64,000 nucleotides of DNA from assembly GCA_017540815.1 (NCBI GenBank), contig JAFYAI010000016.1:666-64665 (forward strand), read 5' to 3'. A program made the position numbers and the translations under genes. Origin of the DNA: Spirochaetales bacterium. GTDB lineage: Bacteria; Spirochaetota; GWE2-31-10; MWDO01. Below are positions 3,837 through 55,426 of this stretch, piece by piece. The notes under the pieces are model-generated. The model searched no databases. It was not told the origin of the DNA and saw only the letters and a program-made list of their open reading frames with translations. Positions within the stretch are counted from its first letter, which is position 1, and each line of letters starts with the position of its first letter.

Positions 3837-4023
3837 ACCACTCTTATGTCCTTGCTTATTAACTCAAATATCGCATCAGAAATCAGCACTATTGTGGGGA
3901 ATACCAACAGAAAAGAAGCAGCGATTTTCTTATTTAATTTCAGTATCCTGTGTTCTAACATACCAATAGGTTATATTATTAATTCCAATTTGTCAAACGA
4001 AAATATCAGTAATAAATTTTTCT

Positions 4024-4060
4024 ACAAAAAAAAAGCACTGCTTTTCGCAGTGCTTTTTTT
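4024..4060 (-). terminator. Terminator downstream of rny
   Basis: aaaaaaaagcactgcttttcgcagtgctttttttg hairpin with flanking A/T runs. Confidence 0.7.
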
Positions 4061-4071
4061 GTAGAGATTTT

Positions 4072-5640
4072 TTATTTTGCATATTCAATGAATCTCGACT
4101 CTCGTATAACGGTAACTTTGATCTTACCGGGATATTTGAGTTCAGACTCAATCTGTTTAGCAATATCTCGTGCAATACCGATAGCCGCATCATCACTTGA
4201 CAATGTGCTGTTCAGCATTACGCGCAGTTCACGACCGGCCTGAATAGCAAATGCTTTCTCAACTCCGGAGAAGTTCTCGGCAATATGCTCCAAGTTCTCC
4301 AGCCGCTTAATGTAATTCTCCAAACTCTCTCGTCTTGCACCGGGACGACTTGCACTAATCGCATCCGCTGCCTGAACAAGTATGGCTTCCAGACATGTCG
4401 GTTCAACATCATTGTGATGTGCCAAGATACAGTTGAGGACTTTCTCATTCTCACCCATTTTCTTAGCCATCTCATAACCTGCTTCCGCATGGTTGTTCTC
4501 ACCGTCAGTCGTAGCACCTTTACCAATATCGTGCAGTAATCCGCCTCGCTTGGCAATATTTTCATCGCAGCCAAGTTCCCGTGCCAACGCACCGGCAATG
4601 GTTGCAACATCGATAGAATGCTGTAAGACATTCTGTCCGTAACTGGTTCTGAAATACAGCCTACCGAGAGCCATAATGCCCTCCGTAGAGAAACCAGGCA
4701 TCCCAACTTCGAGAGTAGCTTCTTCACCCTTGTCAAAGATCGTTTCATTTACCTCATCCAGCACCTTCTTAGTCACCTCTTCGATGCGAGCAGGATGAAT
4801 ACGACCATCAGTCACGAGCCGATTGAGCACAATCTTAGCCACCTCTCGTCTGATCGGATCAAAACTTGAAATAACTATCGCCTCAGGCGTATCATCGATA
4901 ATTATATCCACACCAATGAGTGTCTCCAAAGTCCGGATATTTCGTCCTTCGCGCCCAATAATGCGACCTTTCATCTCATCGTTAGGCAGCGACACACTTG
5001 TAGTGGTTATATCAGATGTAACTTCCGAGGAAATACGCTGTATTGTAGAAACGAGTATCTCTCTGGCTTTATGTTTCGCAACAATCTCAGTCTCTTCCTC
5101 AATCTTACGAATATAGATTGCGGCTTCCTGACGAGCCTTGTCTTCCAAATCTCTGATAAGAGCCGCTTTCGCCTGCTCGGAAGTCATACCTGAGATACGC
5201 TCCAACTCAGCTATACACTTTTCCTGCATAGCATTCAGAGAAGCAATCTTTTCGTTCAGGTGACGCTCCTTATCGGTAACGCTCTGCTCACGGCGTTCCA
5301 TCTCGGATGCTTTCTTATCAAGCTGATCCTCTTTCTGCTGGTTTCGCCGCTCAAGATTTTTTAACTCATTCCTACGTTCTTTGTTCTCCCGCTCAAATTC
5401 CTTCTTTTCACTATCGAAATTCTCTCTCTCTTTGAGTATTTTAGATTGAGCTTCCAATAATGCGTTTTTCTTGATGGATTCTGAGTCAAGTTTTGCCTGA
5501 TTTCTTATATCTTCGGCTTGCTTTTCTATTGTAGTCAGATTTTTGCGTGCAAGTATTCGTCTGATTACAAAACCAATGACACCGCCAAGGAGGATTGATA
5601 CTACAGCTGTTACAATTATACTAATAATCAGCATCGTCAT
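4072..5640 (-). CDS. rny: Ribonuclease Y
   Basis: N-terminal TM helix, long coiled-coil, KH domain (GREGRNIR), HD domain (LLHDIGK). 522 aa. Confidence 0.95.
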   Translation of the reverse strand: MTMLIISIIVTAVVSILLGGVIGFVIRRILARKNLTTIEKQAEDIRNQAKLDSESIKKNALLEAQSKILKERENFDSEKKEFERENKERRNELKNLERRNQQKEDQLDKKASEMERREQSVTDKERHLNEKIASLNAMQEKCIAELERISGMTSEQAKAALIRDLEDKARQEAAIYIRKIEEETEIVAKHKAREILVSTIQRISSEVTSDITTTSVSLPNDEMKGRIIGREGRNIRTLETLIGVDIIIDDTPEAIVISSFDPIRREVAKIVLNRLVTDGRIHPARIEEVTKKVLDEVNETIFDKGEEATLEVGMPGFSTEGIMALGRLYFRTSYGQNVLQHSIDVATIAGALARELGCDENIAKRGGLLHDIGKGATTDGENNHAEAGYEMAKKMGENEKVLNCILAHHNDVEPTCLEAILVQAADAISASRPGARRESLENYIKRLENLEHIAENFSGVEKAFAIQAGRELRVMLNSTLSSDDAAIGIARDIAKQIESELKYPGKIKVTVIRESRFIEYAK

Positions 5641-9569: not shown

Positions 9570-10178
9570 TTACACTTTCACAGTCTTATTGAACCTGCTC
9601 ATCGCTTCTTCGTAGTTCTTGTCGAAGATAAGCGGCAGAGCCTCGGCAATCTTTGGGAAAATATCATTCTCAAGAGCGGACAGCTGCTCCGGCGAGAAAT
9701 CGCCAAGTACATAATCTTTCAGCACATCGTTGCCGTCGGGACTGCTCTTAGGACTGCTCACGCCGATCTTGATCCGAGGGAAATCCTCTCCGCCGAGAAG
9801 CTGTATAATATTCTTGATGCCGTTGTGACCGCCTGCCGAACCTCGCTGACGAATCCGAATCATCCCGAACGGCAGAGAAATATCGTCGTATATCACGACG
9901 AGATTCTCCTTGGGGATCTTGAAGTAACTCATACAGGCTGTAACAGCGTTGCCGCTAAGATTCATATATGTCTGCGGCTTAATCAGATATACAGTTTTAT
10001 CGCCGAAAGCGTGACGCAATTGCGTAAAAGTAAAATTCTTCTTCTTCTTGAACTCGTCACATTCTGTTTGGCGGCTCAGATAATCAAGACATAAGAATCC
10101 GCTGTTATGACGGTTATGTTCGTATTCTGCACCGGGATTACCAAGACCTATAACGGCATAGGCATTATTATCTGACAT
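9570..10178 (-). CDS. pth: Peptidyl-tRNA hydrolase
   Basis: VIGLGNPGAEYEHNRHNSGF signature. 202 aa. Confidence 0.93.
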   Translation of the reverse strand: MSDNNAYAVIGLGNPGAEYEHNRHNSGFLCLDYLSRQTECDEFKKKKNFTFTQLRHAFGDKTVYLIKPQTYMNLSGNAVTACMSYFKIPKENLVVIYDDISLPFGMIRIRQRGSAGGHNGIKNIIQLLGGEDFPRIKIGVSSPKSSPDGNDVLKDYVLGDFSPEQLSALENDIFPKIAEALPLIFDKNYEEAMSRFNKTVKV

Positions 10179-12327
10179 GCTCGCTCCTTGTAAATATAAT
10201 CGGCGACTTAATGAAATGATCTATCCGCAGCACATCTCTGCGATAGCCGTCATAGTCAGCCGGTGGGATAACAGTCACCTTGCGGACAAACTTTGATGTG
10301 AATGTGACCGTATCACCATCATCGTTCGCTGCGGACTCAAATTTGCCGCTGTATGAGAAATACTTATTATCAATGTTCAATTCTTCAGGCAGCCCTGACA
10401 GTGCCAACTCTTTCGGCAGGTGTAGCATAAGAGTGCGATTCTCACCGAATGTTGTTGCATACTTAATCGGATATTTGCGGCTCTGCAGCGTTGTCTCACC
10501 ATAATCGCTCTTAAACGGCAGGCGGAAGACCATATACGGTCCGCAGTCTTTAAGAATATCTGTCGCCTGATAGTTATACTCCATCGTAAAATCCTTAGTG
10601 AAGTCCCGACCGTCATCGTGCGAATAACCTGTCAATCGGCTGCCGGGATAATTGTTGCTCACTATCGAAGTGAAGAGCCCTTTGACTTCCGCCTCATTCA
10701 TACTGCTGAAATAATACCGCATCGATGACTCCCAGCTGCCGCGGTAGATATTAGTCTGCTTAACAGAGCCTTTGCCATCGGCAGCAACTGTAATATCGCA
10801 GGCAAAATGCTGAGTATTATATGAGACATCAGGCGGCTCGATCTCGCGTATCGTATTGAGGATAGGATTCCAAGCAGGTATGCCGTGATCATCCGATCGG
10901 AAATACGGATATTTGTCAGTAGTGCTTGTCGAATCAAGATATATCACCCGTCCGTCTGCAAGATGAATCTCATTAATAGCATGATTGCCGGCACGAGAAC
11001 CGATCTTATCATAAGGCACACGCGGATTATCATTGGTATAAACAATAACAGGATAGGCATCAATGCCGATGTCCCGCAGGATGGTAGCGAAGAAGATAGA
11101 CTTATCGATACAGTCACCGTATCTGTTGGAGAATGTCTCAGCCGCCGGATGACCTGCCATTCCTGAAGAGATACTCGTCTTAACCGAGCGGTAATGCACA
11201 TAATCCTGAACAAACCGATACAAAGCGGCGATCTTCTCTTCTTCCGTCTCGGCGTTAGCCTTGCTAATCACTTCGGCGACAGCAGCACGCATATCATCGC
11301 TGCACACCATCCGTTCCTTGAAGAAACCGCTTAGCCACTTAGACAGATAAGTCTGATCATTGAATGTGCTGCCGCTCAAAACAGGAAGAAGTGCAGCCTG
11401 CGGAGGGCATAGCGGCTCTGATACAAACGGCTCACATTCTCCGCGGCGGAATGTATAAGATGTATAGCCGCCTTTCGTCGATACTATAGGCTTGTCGCTA
11501 AACTTGCCGAAGTTGGATATTGCCCAATAGTATGGAACATTCTGTGGCACTGTCAGCGTCACTATCGACTCATAGACAGGCACATCCGTTCCGAAATACC
11601 AGCCTGTATAGAACTGATTGGGATCTTCAGGTTTCGACTCAACAGTCTCATAAACATAGTCGATGATCGAGCCGACTTCCACATTCGGGATAACAGCCTT
11701 CATAATATACGCATCTTTGCGGCCTGAGAAAAACTGCAAGCCCTGCGACGGATAAGTCCTTGTAATGTCAGAGTCTTTAAGATATGCAACTTTGCCGTCA
11801 GGTGAAATACTGCGTGCCATCAGGATCTTAGTCTCGTATTCACCCTCATTGTTGTAGAATGACAACTGAGCGTTGGACAGCTCTTTCTCATTGAGGATCT
11901 GCACTGTATATCGTGAGCGTGAATACTGCGACTTATCGGCATTCATCTTCAGCTCGCCCTCGTCAAGCAGCACAAGACGGCCGCTATCGGGATACTTGCT
12001 TCGCAGAATGCCGGCTCGCCGAATGAGTTCCGCCGGACTCACATTATCTCTAAATGTCACTGCCGGTTTATCGTCATTTTTAACAGTATTAAACCTTATC
12101 ACAGCGACATCTTCGGTCGGCACAACATCCCCATCTATAGTCAGAATGTTATCTTTATATATAATCCTGCCTTCACCGACTGTCGCCTTATCCCAGCCGA
12201 CAGCCTGATCCGCGGCGTTCGCCGCCATTGCAGTTATGATTATCATTAATAATGGAAGAAGTTTTTTCATAAAATTATCCTTGATTTTCTCAAGATATAA
12301 TATAATAAAAAATAAATAATTCGTCAA
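10168..12327 (-). CDS. Exported transglutaminase-like protein (DUF3857-type N-domain plus transglutaminase core)
   Basis: Signal peptide. Core Cys context GDCIDKSIFFATILRDIGIDAYPV. Confidence 0.75.
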   Translation of the reverse strand: MTNYLFFIILYLEKIKDNFMKKLLPLLMIIITAMAANAADQAVGWDKATVGEGRIIYKDNILTIDGDVVPTEDVAVIRFNTVKNDDKPAVTFRDNVSPAELIRRAGILRSKYPDSGRLVLLDEGELKMNADKSQYSRSRYTVQILNEKELSNAQLSFYNNEGEYETKILMARSISPDGKVAYLKDSDITRTYPSQGLQFFSGRKDAYIMKAVIPNVEVGSIIDYVYETVESKPEDPNQFYTGWYFGTDVPVYESIVTLTVPQNVPYYWAISNFGKFSDKPIVSTKGGYTSYTFRRGECEPFVSEPLCPPQAALLPVLSGSTFNDQTYLSKWLSGFFKERMVCSDDMRAAVAEVISKANAETEEEKIAALYRFVQDYVHYRSVKTSISSGMAGHPAAETFSNRYGDCIDKSIFFATILRDIGIDAYPVIVYTNDNPRVPYDKIGSRAGNHAINEIHLADGRVIYLDSTSTTDKYPYFRSDDHGIPAWNPILNTIREIEPPDVSYNTQHFACDITVAADGKGSVKQTNIYRGSWESSMRYYFSSMNEAEVKGLFTSIVSNNYPGSRLTGYSHDDGRDFTKDFTMEYNYQATDILKDCGPYMVFRLPFKSDYGETTLQSRKYPIKYATTFGENRTLMLHLPKELALSGLPEELNIDNKYFSYSGKFESAANDDGDTVTFTSKFVRKVTVIPPADYDGYRRDVLRIDHFIKSPIIFTRSEHVR

Positions 12328-12341
12328 GTGCGATTATAGAG

Positions 12342-12415
12342 AAAAATTAAACCGACATTCAAACCGACAAAATGTCGGTTTGAATGTCGGTTTGAATTGA
12401 CATTTTGTCGGTAAT
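12342..12415 (+). promoter_or_regulatory. Consensus sigma70 promoter (TTGACA 12387-12392, N17, TATAAT 12410-12415) overlapped by an 18-bp-arm inverted repeat built from the 12-mer aatgtcggtttg
   Basis: ccgacattcaaaccgaca aaa tgtcggtttgaatgtcgg, then ttgaca-N17-tataat. AGGAG RBS lies upstream of the ATG at 12457. Confidence 0.6.
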
Positions 12416-12456
12416 GGAGTATAATATAATAACAGCATTTTTCAGAGGAGAACAGA

Positions 12457-13794
12457 ATGTCAGAATACATTGAGTCAGAGACCATTGAACTGAAAGAAAG
12501 ATTTACAGATGCTATTTGCAGAGAAATTGTAGCGTTTCTTAACTCTGACGGCGGTCAAATCATTATCGGTGTCCGAGACAACGGAGAAGTTGTCGGAGTC
12601 GATAATATCGATGAGACACTGAGAAAAATATCTGACATTATAACTATGCGAATCGAACCTAATCCGCAGGATGAAATTCGCTCTGAGTTAAAGTTTGATA
12701 ACGGGAAAACGCTTATTTGCATCAAAATATCAAAGGGTGTTCATAACATTTACTGTCAGAAAAAATACGGTTTTTCTTCCGGCGGTTGTGTTGTCCGCAT
12801 TGGCACCACTTGCAAAGAAATGACTCCCGAACAAATCAAAATCCGATATGAGAAAAACTTTATCGATGATGAATACATGGTCAAGAAAAGATCATCAATG
12901 GGTAATCTGTCTTTTCGGGAGCTGAAGATATACTATGCCGAGAAAGGCTTCCATTTAAGTGACTCTTCCATAGAATCGAACCTGAATCTGCGAAATAAGG
13001 ACGGGCAATACAATCTGCTGGCGGAACTTTTAGCAGACAGGAATAATATCCCGTTTATTTTTGTGAAATTCAACGGCACTGACAAATCAGCCATTTCCGA
13101 GCGGAACGACTACGGCTATGGCTGCATTCTCTCGGTATATGAAAAACTCAAATCACGCCTTCAGGCTGAGAATACTTGCATTTCTGACACAACAGTCCGT
13201 CCGAGGAAAGACACTTATCTGTTCGACTACGACTGCGTAAACGAAGCCGTAATGAATGCGTTGGTTCACAATGATTGGACTATTACAGAGCCGCAGATCT
13301 CGATGTTCAGCAACAGAATTGAGATACTGTCACACGGCGGTCTGCCACACGGTATGACCAAACAGCAATTTTTCGACGGCATCAGTCATCCGAGGAATGC
13401 AACACTTATGCGGATTTTCCTCAATATGGGTTTGACGGAACATACGGGTCACGGCATTCCGACTATTGTCCGTCAATACAGCAAAGATGTGTTTGAGATA
13501 GCCGACAATTATATCCGCTGCGTCATTCCATTCGATGAAAAAGTTGCAGCATCAATCGAAAATGTCGGTTTGAATGTCGGTTTGAATGTCGGTTTGAATG
13601 TCGGTTTAAACAAAACCGAAAAAGCGGTACTGGCTCTGCTCATCGGCAATCCTACCCTCACAGCAGAATCGATCTCCGAACAAATCGGCGTAACGAAAAG
13701 AACGATAGAGCGTGCATTATCGGAACTGCGGCGTAAAGGCAAAATTGAACGACTCGGCTCCCGCAGAGACGGCAGCTGGAAAGTGGTGGGGTGA
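12457..13794 (+). CDS. AlbA_2 (divergent AAA / Schlafen-like) plus HATPase_c_4 putative DNA-binding regulator. These are often annotated as RecG-like.
   Basis: N-terminal ELKE…REIVAFLNSDGGQIIIGV motif. C-terminal HTH-like region. Internal GLNVGLNVGLNVGLN repeat. Confidence 0.75.
   Translation: MSEYIESETIELKERFTDAICREIVAFLNSDGGQIIIGVRDNGEVVGVDNIDETLRKISDIITMRIEPNPQDEIRSELKFDNGKTLICIKISKGVHNIYCQKKYGFSSGGCVVRIGTTCKEMTPEQIKIRYEKNFIDDEYMVKKRSSMGNLSFRELKIYYAEKGFHLSDSSIESNLNLRNKDGQYNLLAELLADRNNIPFIFVKFNGTDKSAISERNDYGYGCILSVYEKLKSRLQAENTCISDTTVRPRKDTYLFDYDCVNEAVMNALVHNDWTITEPQISMFSNRIEILSHGGLPHGMTKQQFFDGISHPRNATLMRIFLNMGLTEHTGHGIPTIVRQYSKDVFEIADNYIRCVIPFDEKVAASIENVGLNVGLNVGLNVGLNKTEKAVLALLIGNPTLTAESISEQIGVTKRTIERALSELRRKGKIERLGSRRDGSWKVVG
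13559..13610 (+). repeat. In-frame tandem 12-bp repeat (aatgtcggtttg, about 4.3 copies) encoding (GLNV)n
   Basis: Direct reading of 13561-13608. The same 12-mer occurs twice in tandem and once inverted in the gene's own promoter. Confidence 0.9.
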
Positions 13795-13830
13795 TTATTG
13801 GGGGCTGTCTCAAAAACCAAATATCTTAGA

Positions 13831-14250
13831 TTATATTATATCTTCATTAATATAAATCTTCGTCTCCTGCACAGTGCAGCTTTTCCGTGCACGGACAAGA
13901 AGCGGCTCACGAAAAATGAGGAGTTCTTTGTATCGGCCGGAGATACCCAGATCGTGCAAAACTGCCTTGACAAGCAATCGACCGCACGGAGCATTCATAA
14001 ACGGCTTGAAAGAATTCGGATGGAAGTCATCCCTGTTACGCCGCATCAGAATATCATATTTGTTCATCTTGTCGCCCCAAGTAGAAAACAGCTGCACCGC
14101 CTGTTTCAGGCAAAACAGACAGACAACAGCCTGCGGAATGACAAGCCACCATGTCACTTTATATAAAGGAAGCAAAGCAACTATTATTCCGCAGATTAGC
14201 ACAAGAATAGCGTATATATTAAGATATAAAAATCTCGCTGCCTTACGCAT
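13831..14250 (-). CDS. Hypothetical membrane protein (2 TM plus cytoplasmic domain)
   Basis: Hydrophobic N-terminus. 8-bp overlap with the upstream gene. AT-rich island. Confidence 0.45.
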   Translation of the reverse strand: MRKAARFLYLNIYAILVLICGIIVALLPLYKVTWWLVIPQAVVCLFCLKQAVQLFSTWGDKMNKYDILMRRNRDDFHPNSFKPFMNAPCGRLLVKAVLHDLGISGRYKELLIFREPLLVRARKSCTVQETKIYINEDII

Positions 14251-14689
14251 TGCCGACCTGTGCAGCAGCGATAGCCCGATAGAATGCGTCTACAGTCTTC
14301 TGAGCTTCTTTTGCATCAGAGCCGTTTAGCATCACTTCTGTCGTCTGCGTAAATGATTCATAATACAGATAATATGCCGGACAGAAACAGCCGCAAGTCG
14401 CCATCTTGCGATACCCGACTTCCTTTACACTGCTCGGCAGCAAATACTTCACAGTCGAGCTGACATTGAAACAATAACAAGCGATGATGTTCTTCACTTC
14501 AACGACACGGCGATTGGTGATGACCAAAAAGCCCCGCTCACGGTGACCGCAAATCTTGGCAATAAACTTGCGTACTGCACCCAAAGCCCTCATTATAGGA
14601 TTGCTGCTCGTTGCCCACAGCTCCGCCTCGATCTCCATTACAACGGATTCACCGTCTTCCAAGATTAAACCTGATTTTAATTCTGACAT
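14243..14689 (-). CDS. Hypothetical protein, possibly a bacterial PH-like fold
   Basis: The GFLVITNRRVVEV segment is weakly reminiscent of bPH domains. Otherwise no match. Confidence 0.4.
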   Translation of the reverse strand: MSELKSGLILEDGESVVMEIEAELWATSSNPIMRALGAVRKFIAKICGHRERGFLVITNRRVVEVKNIIACYCFNVSSTVKYLLPSSVKEVGYRKMATCGCFCPAYYLYYESFTQTTEVMLNGSDAKEAQKTVDAFYRAIAAAQVGNA

Positions 14690-14705
14690 ATTTTGTACTC
14701 CTTAT

Positions 14706-15362
14706 TTATAGCTTCTTTACTATATCATTTGGATTATTCCCATTTGGATTATAACATTCAAATTCTAGTCTTTTTATCAAAGGTTTAGCATTAGAGGCTA
14801 AAACAATCAATTCACATTGATAAACTTCTTTAGATAAATTATTACATAACGCATTATTCATAATTGTATTATTCTCATCATCAATAACAGCAAACATTGC
14901 TTCCGTTCTTAAAAACCCCTGCATATTATTATTAAAAAAAAGAAAATCACAGTACTTCTCTGCCTTCTTTGCTATTACAGGTGCAGTGGTCGACGGATGT
15001 TTTGCATTATCCTGAAATGACCAAATTAAATTCATCGGTAACACATTTTTGCAATATTCAAAATCTCCTGTTGATGACATTTTCTTTATCCAATGAAGAT
15101 AAACCTGAACATTTTTAGCCGCAGCCCGCCCTTTATTCTCAATTCTTATTTTAAATGAAGATACATCTGTTTGTTTATCTCCAATTAAAATAATTGTTCT
15201 ATTTCGATAAGGGAATACGGTATCCCAAGTCAATTTTAATTTTGGATGAAAAAATACCTTTTTAAGACAACTTTCATATAATGCAAAAAAAGCAATCACT
15301 ACACTTGTTACAGTTCCAATAGCCGTTAAAACTGTACTCAAAACATCTCCACAACAATTCAT
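14706..15362 (-). CDS. Hypothetical membrane-anchored protein
   Basis: One N-terminal TM helix. Very AT-rich coding sequence. Confidence 0.45.
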   Translation of the reverse strand: MNCCGDVLSTVLTAIGTVTSVVIAFFALYESCLKKVFFHPKLKLTWDTVFPYRNRTIILIGDKQTDVSSFKIRIENKGRAAAKNVQVYLHWIKKMSSTGDFEYCKNVLPMNLIWSFQDNAKHPSTTAPVIAKKAEKYCDFLFFNNNMQGFLRTEAMFAVIDDENNTIMNNALCNNLSKEVYQCELIVLASNAKPLIKRLEFECYNPNGNNPNDIVKKL

Positions 15363-15419
15363 ATTGAACTCCTTGATTAATATGCACCCTCAAACAAAGG
15401 GCGAAATCATTTACTTGCC

Positions 15420-16943
15420 CTACTGAATCCCAAACTCATCACAAACTTTATCAACAGCCAAGTTCCAGACTTTTTGAACACTTTCTTTAGTATAACCTTT
15501 AGAAGTTGAAAATTCGTGAATATTTTCAGGCTTTTTTGCAAGTGAGTTTTCAATAACTATATTGCGGCCACTTTCATAAATACGATATGCCTTATATAAA
15601 CCACTTCTTGTTCCAAGATATTCAAACTTTTTGCTTTTGACCTTATATTCACCTTTTTTTACAGTACCATTAGTATTCAGAATATCCCGAACATTATCAC
15701 AGAATTTTGAAATATAATTTGCAATCAAATCTTCTTCTGCTTTCTTCTCTCGTGCAATACGTTCTGCTTCTGCTTTTTCACGAGCGATGCGAGCTTTTTC
15801 TGCAGCTATCGCTGCTTTTTTAATCGATAATTCATCAAAAACATTTTTCAATGCGTTGTAATCACTCTTCTTAACATAAGTATGAGCCCAATAATCACCT
15901 GGTTCCACAGAAAAAAATAAAAATTTAGGTTCTACAGTATATTTATTAGACATAGATTCATTCGATACCTCTATAGGAAGTGTAAAATCACTGGCTTCCA
16001 TCAACAATTTAAAAGCCTCAATATTACCAAGAAGTATAGGAAGCACAAATAACATATCGGAAGAGCCAGAAAATCTACCACCTCTCTTCGTTCCAAGTAA
16101 CTTTATTCGTTTTGTCAAATCTACCCCTTTAGCTATATAATCCTTTACTATTGCAAGAGATTTTTCATAATCCATAGAAGTATTATAATTTGCTATAAAC
16201 TTCATAAATTCTATTTCTTCTTGACTTACTAAATGTGTACAATATTTTGGAACAATTTCATTTATAAAATATGGAGTAATCATTCCATCATAACTAGTAT
16301 TCAAATCATAAGAATCTGTAGCCTCTAACAATTCAATAACTTCTGGTTTATTGACAAATAGTAATAGTTCTTTCACCGGTACTTTATAACCAGATTTTAA
16401 ATACGATTTAATAGCAGACATATCACCTGTAAGAAGTTGATAATATATAGAATCAACCGCTGTTACTATTGGATTATATTGTAATAGGGTTAAAATAGGA
16501 ATGATATAATAAGATTTGACATCATAAGAGAACCAATTTGCTTCCAAAAAAGTGTCAATCGCTGTCTTATTGTTCTTCCATTTTCTATTTACATCATCAT
16601 ACTTTTTATCATACATATACACCACCTTATCAAAAGTATAGCCAACACGTTGATAAGAATAATATTCAGCAAAATAATTATGTGCATAATCAATCACAGC
16701 ACCCTTCTCCATAAGATAATCAATGCATTTCTTATACATTTCATCTTTTCCTTCATATATAGGCCAATTTTTCAGACATATTTCAAGCAATCTAGAATCG
16801 CCTTTTACATCATAGTCCAACAATTCTATCTGCTTCTTCATAGTATCAAAATCACCACTTGCAGCAGCATCTGTCAACTTGCTCGCCATCGCACCCCACA
16901 CACAACAAAACACCAAACCAGTCACTAATAATTTCTTCTTCAT
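15420..16943 (-). CDS. Hypothetical exported protein, 507 aa, with a coiled-coil KAEAERIAREK segment
   Basis: Signal peptide MKKKLLVTGLVFCCVWGAMA. AAGGAGG RBS. AT-rich. Confidence 0.5.
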   Translation of the reverse strand: MKKKLLVTGLVFCCVWGAMASKLTDAAASGDFDTMKKQIELLDYDVKGDSRLLEICLKNWPIYEGKDEMYKKCIDYLMEKGAVIDYAHNYFAEYYSYQRVGYTFDKVVYMYDKKYDDVNRKWKNNKTAIDTFLEANWFSYDVKSYYIIPILTLLQYNPIVTAVDSIYYQLLTGDMSAIKSYLKSGYKVPVKELLLFVNKPEVIELLEATDSYDLNTSYDGMITPYFINEIVPKYCTHLVSQEEIEFMKFIANYNTSMDYEKSLAIVKDYIAKGVDLTKRIKLLGTKRGGRFSGSSDMLFVLPILLGNIEAFKLLMEASDFTLPIEVSNESMSNKYTVEPKFLFFSVEPGDYWAHTYVKKSDYNALKNVFDELSIKKAAIAAEKARIAREKAEAERIAREKKAEEDLIANYISKFCDNVRDILNTNGTVKKGEYKVKSKKFEYLGTRSGLYKAYRIYESGRNIVIENSLAKKPENIHEFSTSKGYTKESVQKVWNLAVDKVCDEFGIQ

Positions 16944-16970
16944 AAGAAATCCTCCTTAAATAATATATAG

Positions 16971-17062
16971 TCTCTCCCAATTCTGTTTGCTTAGAAGAGG
17001 AATCATTTAGTTTGTTCTGTCAAGAACAAACTAAATGTGGTATACCACATTTCAGATTTTTT
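16971..17062 (-). repeat. Conserved leader element copy 1: two adjacent palindromes upstream of the 507-aa exported-protein gene
   Basis: tttgcttagaagaggaatcatttagtttgttcTGTCAAgaacaaactaaatgtggtataccacattt. Near-identical copy at 46836-46928. Confidence 0.8.
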
Positions 17063-17174
17063 TTAAATTTACGCTATAGACATACCATCAGTCCAATATT
17101 ACAATACTATAATATTTAGTGATTGTCAAGAAATAAAATACAATAGTATAAATTTACTTGACAAATGAGGTTTT

Positions 17175-17522
17175 ATGATGCTAAATGAACGAATAAAAGA
17201 ACAGCGGATATTACATGGGTTAAATCAGGTGGAACTTGCGAAAAGACTCGGAGTCTCCAAGCAAAGCGTGTCAAATTGGGAGAATGACAACATTCAGCCG
17301 TCTATAGATATGCTTATACGAATATCGCATTTTTTCTCGGTGAGTACGGATTATTTGTTAGGCGAAGACAATCGCAAATATATAGAAGTATCAAATCTGA
17401 CTAAACGGGAACTCAGACACATTCAATATATAATAAATGATATAGTACATGCAAAATGGGGGAAAGGCAAAAATATAAAACGGCATCACGCCAAATCATC
17501 CGATATTCAGGATCTTCAATGA
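17175..17522 (+). CDS. XRE-family HTH transcriptional regulator
   Basis: LNQVELAKRLGVSKQSVSNWEN helix-turn-helix. Confidence 0.8.
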   Translation: MMLNERIKEQRILHGLNQVELAKRLGVSKQSVSNWENDNIQPSIDMLIRISHFFSVSTDYLLGEDNRKYIEVSNLTKRELRHIQYIINDIVHAKWGKGKNIKRHHAKSSDIQDLQ

Positions 17523-17531
17523 AGAAATTAG

Positions 17532-17620
17532 TTTTCGATGCCATTTTGTACGGTTTCACATCATTTTTCGGTGCCATTTTTGACGGTTTTACTTGACTTT
17601 TCGATGCCATTTTGATACAG
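17532..17620 (+). repeat. About 32-bp direct repeat, 3 copies (ttttcgatgccattttgtacggtttcac-like), between the XRE gene and the ATPase gene
   Basis: Units at 17533-17563, 17565-17597 and 17598-17620. The last unit overlaps a TTGACT-N17-TACAGT promoter 7 nt before the ATG. Confidence 0.8.
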
Positions 17621-54991: not shown

Positions 54992-55426
54992 TTACTCATC
55001 CTCACCTATATGTGTCATCTTCAACTTTTTATCACATTCGTCGATTGTTTCATCACAATAGCGAATCTCTTTCAAAATATTTCTAATATCATCATCAATA
55101 ATCAGATCCGTTTGATTGGGATTATTATTTAGAATCTCAAACATCATTTCTCCCAACATTTCCATAGCCTTTTGCCTTTTGGTTTCTGCATTTTTCTTCT
55201 CAATTCTAACAGGAACAACCTTTGCTTCATTTCCAAGCCATTTCAATCCTTTCTTACCGGCTTCCCCAGCTTTTTTTCCTATTTCTTTAGCTTTTTCTCC
55301 GGCTTTCTTTGCTCCTTCTTTGAACTTTTCTTTCATTTCAGATTCCTGTTTCTCAGGCTCTTTCTTCTCCTTTCCTAAGAAAGGAAACCACCCTTTCTTT
55401 TCTTCCTTCATTCCTTCTTTACCCAT
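54992..55426 (-). CDS. Lys/Glu-rich small protein
   Basis: Low-complexity KEEKK/GKKAGE repeats. No TM helix. Confidence 0.4.
   Translation of the reverse strand: MGKEGMKEEKKGWFPFLGKEKKEPEKQESEMKEKFKEGAKKAGEKAKEIGKKAGEAGKKGLKWLGNEAKVVPVRIEKKNAETKRQKAMEMLGEMMFEILNNNPNQTDLIIDDDIRNILKEIRYCDETIDECDKKLKMTHIGEDE

Follow-up and report, generated by a model that had tools for sequence, protein, structure and literature searches.

In the lac system, operator O1 pairs with O2, which lies inside lacZ, and with O3, at the 3′ end of lacI; in the gal system, OE pairs with OI, inside galE. Here, we describe a related-looking arrangement in a Schlafen-type gene of a Spirochaetales bacterium, found in a 64-kb window (the whole stretch of DNA analysed, 64,000 nucleotides of contig JAFYAI010000016.1). 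Copies of one 12-bp motif lie over the promoter of this gene, and further copies lie in frame within its coding sequence, where they are translated into the linker that precedes a C-terminal winged helix-turn-helix (HTH). The feature is real, strongly non-random and conserved across phyla.

Fusions of the type Schlafen-HisKinase-HTH make up 19.2% of 5,930 bacterial Schlafens in the accessible text of PMC13056530, in which Ex4(E/D)xK is defined as the nuclease motif of the prokaryotic Schlafens. The accessible text of bioRxiv 10.64898/2026.05.29.728809 uses the name “Schlatpase” for the Schlafen and GHKL pair, most members being small and ending in a short HTH. It also describes a Schlafen-Argonaute relative in which ATP binding to the GHKL domain leads to tetramerisation, and in which the Schlafen domain cuts tRNA. 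No role or DNA target for the C-terminal HTH, and no defence assay of this architecture, was found in the accessible text of either source.

The gene and its motif copies in the window

The coding sequence, 12457-13794 on the plus strand, specifies a protein of 445 residues with SLFN_AlbA_2, HATPase_c_4 and winged HTH domains, in that order (Table 1). The gene and its first two domains had been called in an earlier interpretation of the letters alone, the sequence-only reading; these calls are confirmed, and the winged HTH is an addition. The nuclease motif is present as E6-S-E-T-I-E11-L-K13, and E6, E11 and K13 are invariant among 32 homologues. All four sequence features of the class are found, as follows: SLFN_AlbA_2, Ex4(E/D)xK, a GHKL ATPase after it, and a short C-terminal HTH. 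Judged by its sequence, the protein is a prokaryotic Schlafen nuclease-GHKL ATPase-winged HTH, or “Schlatpase-HTH”. PADLOC and NCBIfam supplied no defence system or family name for it, and PADLOC returned weak partial matches only, to pAgo and HTH-bearing CRISPR-associated models. The AlphaFold2 model is poor, with a mean predicted local distance difference test score (pLDDT) of 55.

Table 1. Features of the Schlafen gene and its flanks, numbered from the first letter of the window
Feature	Position	Strand	Details
Two exact tandem copies of AATGTCGGTTTG	12371..12394	+	abut the -35; right palindrome arm; proposed main operator sites
Two inverted 12-mer copies, AATGTCGGTTTA and TTTGTCGGTTTG	12348..12359, 12360..12371	-	one mismatch each; left palindrome arm
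Sigma-70-type promoter	12397..12425	+	TTGACA 12397-12402, 17-nt spacer, TATAAT 12420-12425; 12/12 consensus positions
Fifth core, promoter-proximal site TTTGTCGGTAAT	12404..12415	+	within the -35/-10 spacer
In-frame 12-mer array, proposed distal operator	13561..13608	+	three exact copies and one with G>A
SLFN_AlbA_2 domain (PF04326)	12472..12825	+	residues 6-123; E = 2.3e-20; 73.7 bits vs cutoff 25.3
HATPase_c_4 / GHKL ATPase domain (PF13749)	13288..13485	+	residues 278-343; E = 1.5e-16
C-terminal winged HTH	13600..13761	+	residues 382-435; TrmB, HTH_24 and HTH_11 models match
Shine-Dalgarno-like AGAGGAG	12444..12450	+	read from the sequence; upstream of the ATG at 12457
Promoter-like site TTGAAT-N18-TATAAT	12333..12362	-	10/12 matches; its -35 inside the left palindrome arm
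DUF3857/transglutaminase-like gene, divergent	10168..12270	-	likely start ATG at 12270; pth next

The promoter is the textbook sigma-70 promoter that the sequence-only reading had recognised. It is overlapped by a palindrome, 12344-12398, in which a 3-nt gap separates 26-nt arms that are 92% complementary, 21 nt of them perfectly. The overlap and the two tandem copies of the 12-mer had been described correctly, but there are two inverted copies, not one, and the arms are longer than the 18 bp reported. From the core of the preceding site to that of the spacer site, the distance is 21 nt. The in-frame repeat in the coding sequence is likewise real, but it comprises four copies rather than about 4.3 and has the limits given in Table 1. 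It is read as AAT GTC GGT TTG, giving (NVGL)4 rather than (GLNV)4, at residues 369-384 in the linker just before the HTH.

A search of the window for further occurrences of AATGTCGGTTTG, as had been advised for the genome, found it with at most one mismatch at the promoter and in the linker only. There are seven matches against 0.36 expected, and none of 100 shuffles reached seven. Six other copies of the 8-mer ATGTCGGT are isolated singles within long open reading frames (ORFs).

Conservation and co-variation among homologous loci

A scan of species-representative genomes yielded 80 loci with protein identities of 64-81%; the number of loci tallied is 81 or 82 for some of the counts below. 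Many phyla are represented, and the taxa include Lachnospiraceae, Fusobacterium, Treponema, Ruminobacter, Megasphaera, Peptoniphilus, Bacteroides fragilis and Acholeplasmataceae. Nearly all 80 loci have an (NVGx)2-5 linker, and some relatives have non-repetitive linkers. An in-register copy of the locus's own linker unit, with at most one mismatch, is found no more than 200 nt upstream in 56 of the 73 loci that have a linker array. The matches are concentrated there: 96 occur in 14.5 kb of upstream DNA versus 4 in 14.4 kb downstream, with 1 in the 80 kb of remaining coding sequence and none in 84 kb farther upstream.

The promoter layout is equally regular. Two cores 20-22 nt apart are present upstream in 70 of 81 loci, and the distance is exactly 21 nt in 57. 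In the promoter consensus, AATGTCGGTtTatATT..A..aaTGTCG..AatatgaTATaaT, one site abuts the -35 and the other is in the spacer before an extended -10. Sites placed in this way have the geometry of a repressor operator. Any further upstream copies are arranged in tandem, with as many as six in L059, or inverted, and inverted copies are absent from most loci; the window palindrome is one local variant of the conserved plan. Several loci have expanded promoter arrays. The six tandem 12-mers of L059, a Treponema locus, extend from -124 to -53 upstream. Four sites with an 11-nt period are found at -100 to -56 in L076 (Veillonella) and five TGTCGCT sites at -122 to -44 in L052, both being loci without a linker array. 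In L061 (Peptoniphilus harei, 4001-5317), a probable pseudogene with two in-frame stops, the promoter sites are kept.

Copy number varies. The comparison of repeat number proposed in the sequence-only reading, made here across relatives, gives 2-5 linker units among homologues and 2, 3 or 4 within clusters of at least 90% identity, in which proteins one unit apart have 443 versus 439 residues, 442 versus 438, 442 versus 446, and 444 versus 440. Thus, the expectation that 12-nt slippage would vary the linker length in frame is borne out, and the polymorphism among close relatives is of the kind seen at a contingency locus. Promoter copy number ranges from 1 to 6 across loci. An on/off phase switch was considered and rejected: the 12-nt unit keeps the frame, and the tandem promoter copies lie upstream of the -35 rather than in the spacer.

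The codons of the linker are frozen. A codon alignment of the 80 genes shows linker Val encoded by GTC in 94-99% of sequences and linker Gly by GGT in 90-98%, with an entropy of 0.11-0.6 bit. For the remaining conserved columns of Val and Gly, the frequency of the top codon averages 0.43-0.48, with a maximum of 0.79, and among the Val codons used outside the linker, GTC ranks last, at 14.6%. The fourth codon of the unit, on the other hand, varies non-synonymously (L/I/M/T/S/K), from hydrophobic to polar. Since the N, V and G codons are frozen and the fourth is free, the constrained unit is the 9-nt core, not the peptide. No conserved -10, start codon or extra frozen synonymous sites were found past the array, and an internal promoter or a short HTH-only isoform was rejected on these grounds.

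These observations bear on the possibility that selection acts on the protein, with the tetrapeptide repeat serving as a flexible or structured spacer whose length is tuned by slippage and with the promoter resemblance being secondary. We consider this very unlikely. Copy number is indeed polymorphic, linkers with other tetrapeptide repeats but without promoter copies (TTQE, ATTE, KTLQ, DPIT, GLKS, LPRE and more) are found throughout the superfamily, and pLDDT is below 50 at residues 370-380, albeit in a model that is poor overall. A spacer would hardly account, however, for nearly invariant synonymous sites at N, V and G, with the rare codon used for Val, nor for a fourth residue that may be hydrophobic or polar. 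Further, some relatives do without a repetitive linker, and V to G and G to A changes coincide with changes in the operator core.

The last point deserves a fuller account, as follows. In L073, a promoter with AATACCGCCA...ATGGCGGTATT (core TGGCGGT) is matched by a linker (NGGI)n encoded by aatggcggtatt. In L049, promoter arrays of ATGTCGCA (TGTCGCA) are matched by NVA units in the linker. In the GAIS subfamily, a sister group at 50% identity (L092, L103), TGGCGCAATAAG sites (TGGCGCA) in the same promoter layout are matched by (GAIS)n, encoded by ggcgcaataagt; a metagenome scan for this subfamily gave one usable locus, L103, in which the pattern is reproduced. That is, linker amino acids change exactly where the operator core differs. 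The rest of the unit agrees as well, GGTATA being found in both promoter and linker of the NVGI loci, GGAATG in both for L039, and GGCATA in both for L017.

The HTH changes along with the motif. The presumed recognition helix of the window protein is GVTKRTIER, and in the majority of loci this helix accompanies the core TGTCGGT. Helix GVTVRTIQR accompanies TGTCGGG (L062, L063, L070), GVTVRTIYR accompanies TGTCAGG (L057, L065), and GISKRTVER accompanies TGGCGGT (L073). This co-variation is consistent with the HTH reading the motif. The earlier suggestion that the palindrome is an autoregulatory operator can therefore be kept in part: the position at the -35/-10 is conserved, and the core changes with the helix, as would be expected of an operator, but the palindrome itself is specific to the window. 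The conserved plan consists of a main site with a spacer site at a distance of 21 nt, and of further copies in tandem or inverted orientation. Since the -35 of the minus-strand promoter-like site falls within the left arm, the window palindrome may also control the divergent DUF3857 gene and so regulate both directions.

A different source for the likeness of the two arrays is concerted evolution. The arrays might share an origin, for example if an autoregulated HTH gene was joined, across its operator, to a Schlafen-ATPase gene upstream of it, or if linker DNA was duplicated to the promoter, and might be kept alike by slippage and gene conversion, only the promoter copy being functional as DNA. 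Several facts fit: rare variants are common to both arrays (GGCATA in L017, GGAATG in L039, GGTATG in L001), exact shared tracts of 20-37 nt exist in 28 loci, in about 19 loci the gene does without a linker array, and the annotation of a Mesomycoplasma homologue splits it into an ATPase gene and an HTH gene, although this may be a genetic-code artefact. The sequence-only reading had also offered a single repeat-prone source for both sites, and the rare variants in L017 and L039 uphold it to that extent. In 20 loci, however, the longest exact tract shared by upstream and linker DNA is at most 14 nt, yet linker codon identity is 0.87-0.89 versus 0.34-0.41 elsewhere. A tract of 14 nt is below the usual minimum for RecA-mediated exchange. 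Hence, gene conversion cannot be the whole explanation for the frozen codons. Moreover, the AATGTCGGT core persists even in arrays that depart from the promoter units once in every 12 nt (L059, L007, L035), and the copy in the coding sequence is constrained as DNA itself. We therefore regard a by-product of this kind as unlikely, though it deserves to be taken seriously.

The distal array and a proposed mechanism

A scan for flanking inverted repeats unexpectedly brought up arrays on the far side of the gene. Seven loci without a linker array (L043, L057, L062, L063, L065, L070, L071) have 3-5 copies of their own core after the stop codon, within about 100 nt of it (counted over 150 nt). Among 82 loci, the distal array is in the linker only in 61, in the 3′ flank only in seven, in both places in two and in neither in 12; of the two with both, only L049 is real, and it has an upstream array as well as those of the linker and the 3′ flank. 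A missing linker array is associated with a post-stop array (Fisher's exact p = 9e-5), and the chance of at least three cores in 150 nt at the gene-body rate is about 2e-4. Counted by its own core, a second set of sites at a distance is present as a linker array in 61-63 loci and as a 3′-flank array in 7-8.

It follows that the conserved entity is a distal site array, 1.1-1.4 kb from the promoter. The array is usually, not necessarily, in linker-coding DNA, and this points to a second, putative operator rather than a by-product, for a passive relic would not predict a post-stop array in loci without a linker array.

We hold with moderate confidence that the protein is an autorepressor with an operator at its promoter and a distal operator array in the linker DNA, both bound by the tethered HTHs of one oligomer. 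We infer HTH binding, repression and looping from sequence, as follows. The winged HTH would recognise a core of about 9 bp, (A)ATGTCGGT. The protein would repress its own transcription: cores abut the -35 and one occupies the spacer 21 bp, or two helical turns, downstream, and protein on these cores would exclude RNA polymerase. The second array is 1.1 kb downstream and, in the window as in most relatives, occupies the only part of the gene with a nearly free peptide sequence, the linker before the HTH; the (NVGL)n peptide would be largely the translation of an array of DNA-binding sites. An oligomer with several HTHs on flexible tethers could bind both arrays at once, looping or bridging the gene body or, possibly, forming a roadblock, and the gene for a potentially toxic nuclease would thereby be kept tightly off. 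Slippage by 12 nt would alter the number of sites, and hence the linker length, with the reading frame intact. The tetramerising SLFN-GHKL relative described in the accessible text of bioRxiv 10.64898/2026.05.29.728809 is a lead for oligomeric bridging.

Several points weigh against this proposal. Promoter sites without any distal array are found in 12 of the 82 loci and in L105, of the GAIS subfamily, so the distal array is dispensable. Some 3′-flank arrays could instead act as operators of a gene that follows; in L057, the 3′ array is separated by about 100 nt from the start of an hsdM-like ORF. The rare unit variants common to both arrays in L017 and L039 show that sequence exchange occurs, and part of the similarity of the arrays is thus concerted evolution. 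The loci are phylogenetically non-independent, and the co-variation and 3′-array cases probably amount to about 4-8 independent events. Finally, in subfamilies of at most 44% identity there are 12-nt repeat linkers without a promoter copy, which means that repeat linkers exist for a reason independent of the promoter copy.

It is tempting, if distinctly speculative, to go beyond the autorepressor proposal and see in the arrays, in place of a plain repression device, the resting-state scaffold of an immune nuclease. The oligomer would be parked on its own gene, the HTHs bridging both arrays, and its release would de-repress the gene and unleash a tRNA nuclease. The triggers could be phage-induced DNA damage, a change in supercoiling or competing DNA. 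The linker would be a true dual-coding segment, with its sequence set by the DNA specificity of the domain that follows it. The synapse might also allow the cassette to be excised or exchanged, and this would account for its spread across phyla. We think a scaffold of this kind quite unlikely.

The spread itself is plain. The gene is solitary: clustering of neighbouring ORFs revealed no conserved partner, only generic ABC ATPases. The gene has evidently been horizontally transferred. In nine loci of different genera, including L021, a GMP synthase (guaA)-like gene is immediately upstream, which suggests a recurrent insertion site. Phage records contained only relatives of at most 30% identity, with none in viral contigs, and a tblastn search of plasmids gave 13 records, all distant.

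Might the arrays, then, be recombination or mobility sites, driving excision, swapping of the N-terminal module or, in the window, inversion, with the protein's own nuclease or ATPase as a possible catalyst? The solitary gene, found across phyla at 64-81% identity without a conserved neighbour, would suit such a role, as would the near-identical arrays of 40-75 nt that flank the whole gene in L049 and L070, and the perfect inverted repeats of 21-23 nt, 1.2 kb apart, formed in the window by the upstream inverted copies and the coding array. We nevertheless judge this role highly improbable. In most loci, the right-hand array is inside the gene, where exchange would split the ORF, and inverted upstream copies are lacking; no rearranged or empty-site variants were seen, and there are no close relatives in the phage or viral collections. 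An inversion switch between upstream inverted copies and the coding copies was rejected, being possible only in the window and a few loci; most loci have direct copies only.

Other features around the window gene were noted. An AT-rich inverted repeat (23 nt, 87% complementary; 12292-12314 and 13822-13844) brackets the unit of promoter and gene; it was rejected as a pair of cassette ends, since it has no equivalent in other loci and may be due to chance. On the 3′ side of the Schlafen gene, a low-GC stretch at about 14400-17400 (29-35% versus 41-47% nearby) contains four minus-strand ORFs without a Pfam match (13831-16943) and is possibly an acquired island. Tandem Repeats Finder also reported two unrelated 33-nt tandem repeats in the window, at 17532-17614 (2.5 copies) and 55262-55329 (2.0 copies).

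An element acting in the mRNA is the explanation to which we attach the least probability, a very slight one. The motif would be a binding site for the nucleic-acid-binding domains of the protein itself, or a partner in long-range pairing that controls translation or stability. The NCBI name, “RNA-binding domain-containing protein”, and the complementarity of the upstream left arm to the coding array in the window speak for it. But the promoter copies are upstream of or within the core promoter and so would not be transcribed from it, the complementary upstream copy is missing in most loci, and post-stop arrays serve equally well. No Rfam family matched at its gathering score; the only hit was a sub-threshold hairpin match of the palindrome to a microRNA model, at 27.8 bits versus a gathering score of 68.

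Distant subfamilies and comparison with known systems

A whole-library search gave 11,668 homologues, many of which have tetrapeptide-repeat linkers of unrelated sequence. The pattern is not a family-wide rule. In ten subfamilies of at most 44% identity with 12-nt repeat linkers, no further copy of the unit was found, be it upstream or at any other point of the 4-30 kb searched. By these sequence comparisons, the identity of promoter and linker motifs is specific to the clade of at least 50% identity.

Distant homologues were found in defence operons, as follows: L081 and L089 on a Francisella plasmid, L084 and L090 on a Pseudanabaena plasmid, L088 on a Vibrio plasmid, and L094. They are located between hsdM and hsdS of a type I restriction-modification (R-M) system, beside pglZ of a bacteriophage exclusion (BREX) system, or between a helicase/PLD gene and a methyltransferase. 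Their start and stop codons overlap the neighbouring genes, so that they lack separate promoters. For the homologues between hsdM and hsdS or beside BREX genes, too, no second occurrence of the linker unit was found upstream or at another place in the locus.

A paralogue downstream of the main gene in L058 (6467-6490) and L097 (3102-3125) have an identical unit, ACTACCCAAGAA, which encodes TTQE, and the two proteins are about 31% identical over their C-terminal halves. Related units, GCTACCACGGAA, GCTACCACCCAA and ACTACCACAAAA, occur in Francisella, Persicobacter and a metagenome relative. No promoter copy was found for the TTQE unit or the related units in any of these five. An identical ACTACCCAAGAA at 31% identity suggests that a DNA-level cause may act in those subfamilies too. 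The promoter of L093, whose subfamily is at 41% identity, has a -35-like TTGAAA flanked by a pair of GATAAAT motifs with a spacing of 22 nt (-75 to -45 upstream). The geometry matches that of the clade studied here; GATAAAT is unrelated to the TTTK linker unit of L093.

In the literature searched, the layout of promoter and linker copies was not found described. Among bacterial Schlafens, the Schlafen-GHKL-HTH class is the most common, and the present finding gives its HTH a candidate target, the 9-bp core. The sequence of the linker peptide seems to be determined chiefly by selection on the underlying DNA as a site for protein binding; the linker would be a natural case of dual coding, to judge by the frozen synonymous sites and the matching changes in promoter, linker and helix. 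The proposal would explain why slippage lets the linker copy number drift harmlessly, and it suggests how a potentially toxic defence nuclease stays silent. The pairing of motifs with helices (TGTCGGT, TGTCGGG, TGTCAGG, TGGCGGT, TGGCGCA) offers a specificity series for studies of winged-helix recognition.

Among described systems, the prokaryotic Schlafens resemble the window protein in their order of SLFN_AlbA_2, GHKL PF13749 and short HTH and in the Ex4(E/D)xK motif, and distant relatives are found in loci of type I R-M and BREX systems; unlike here, promoter and linker arrays were not found mentioned in the accessible text of PMC13056530 or bioRxiv 10.64898/2026.05.29.728809. Autoregulated type II toxin-antitoxin systems offer an analogy, in that a DNA-binding domain encoded in the locus would repress a potentially toxic nuclease through repeated half-site operators that overlap the promoter. 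In contrast to those systems, effector and DNA-binding domain here are one polypeptide, with no separate labile antitoxin.

In iteron systems, the winged-helix plasmid Rep protein binds tandem iterons and an inverted-repeat operator at its own promoter. The window gene similarly has one motif as tandem and inverted repeats over the promoter of a putative regulator with a winged-helix domain, in variable copy number. It differs in being a chromosomal gene without a Rep domain or origin, with a period of 12 bp rather than about 20 bp and with one coding array. A replication system of the iteron/Rep type was rejected, since a domain search found no Rep domain in the window protein and the loci are chromosomal, in unrelated contexts. 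A parS site, in turn, lies within spo0J (parB) of Bacillus subtilis, a single 16-bp site that acts in chromosome partition. There, too, a protein's site is embedded in its own coding sequence, but nothing in that case corresponds to a tandem array that is translated and has a promoter operator as its partner.

The closest parallel is with lac and gal looping. Two features of such systems are found here by sequence, namely operator-like sites over the core promoter (70 of 81 loci) and a distant second array. As in lac and gal, a promoter-proximal operator would be joined by a distant copy of the same sequence in coding DNA, presumably through one oligomeric repressor. The differences are that here 2-5 tandem units make up the distal site, which is about 1.1 kb away and within the regulator's own gene, and that it is translated as the regulator's linker and co-varies with the promoter sites across lineages. 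Thus, autoregulation with an auxiliary operator is already known; what is new is an auxiliary array that, as the comparisons indicate, is translated as the regulator's repeat linker and is co-evolving with the promoter sites and the recognition helix.

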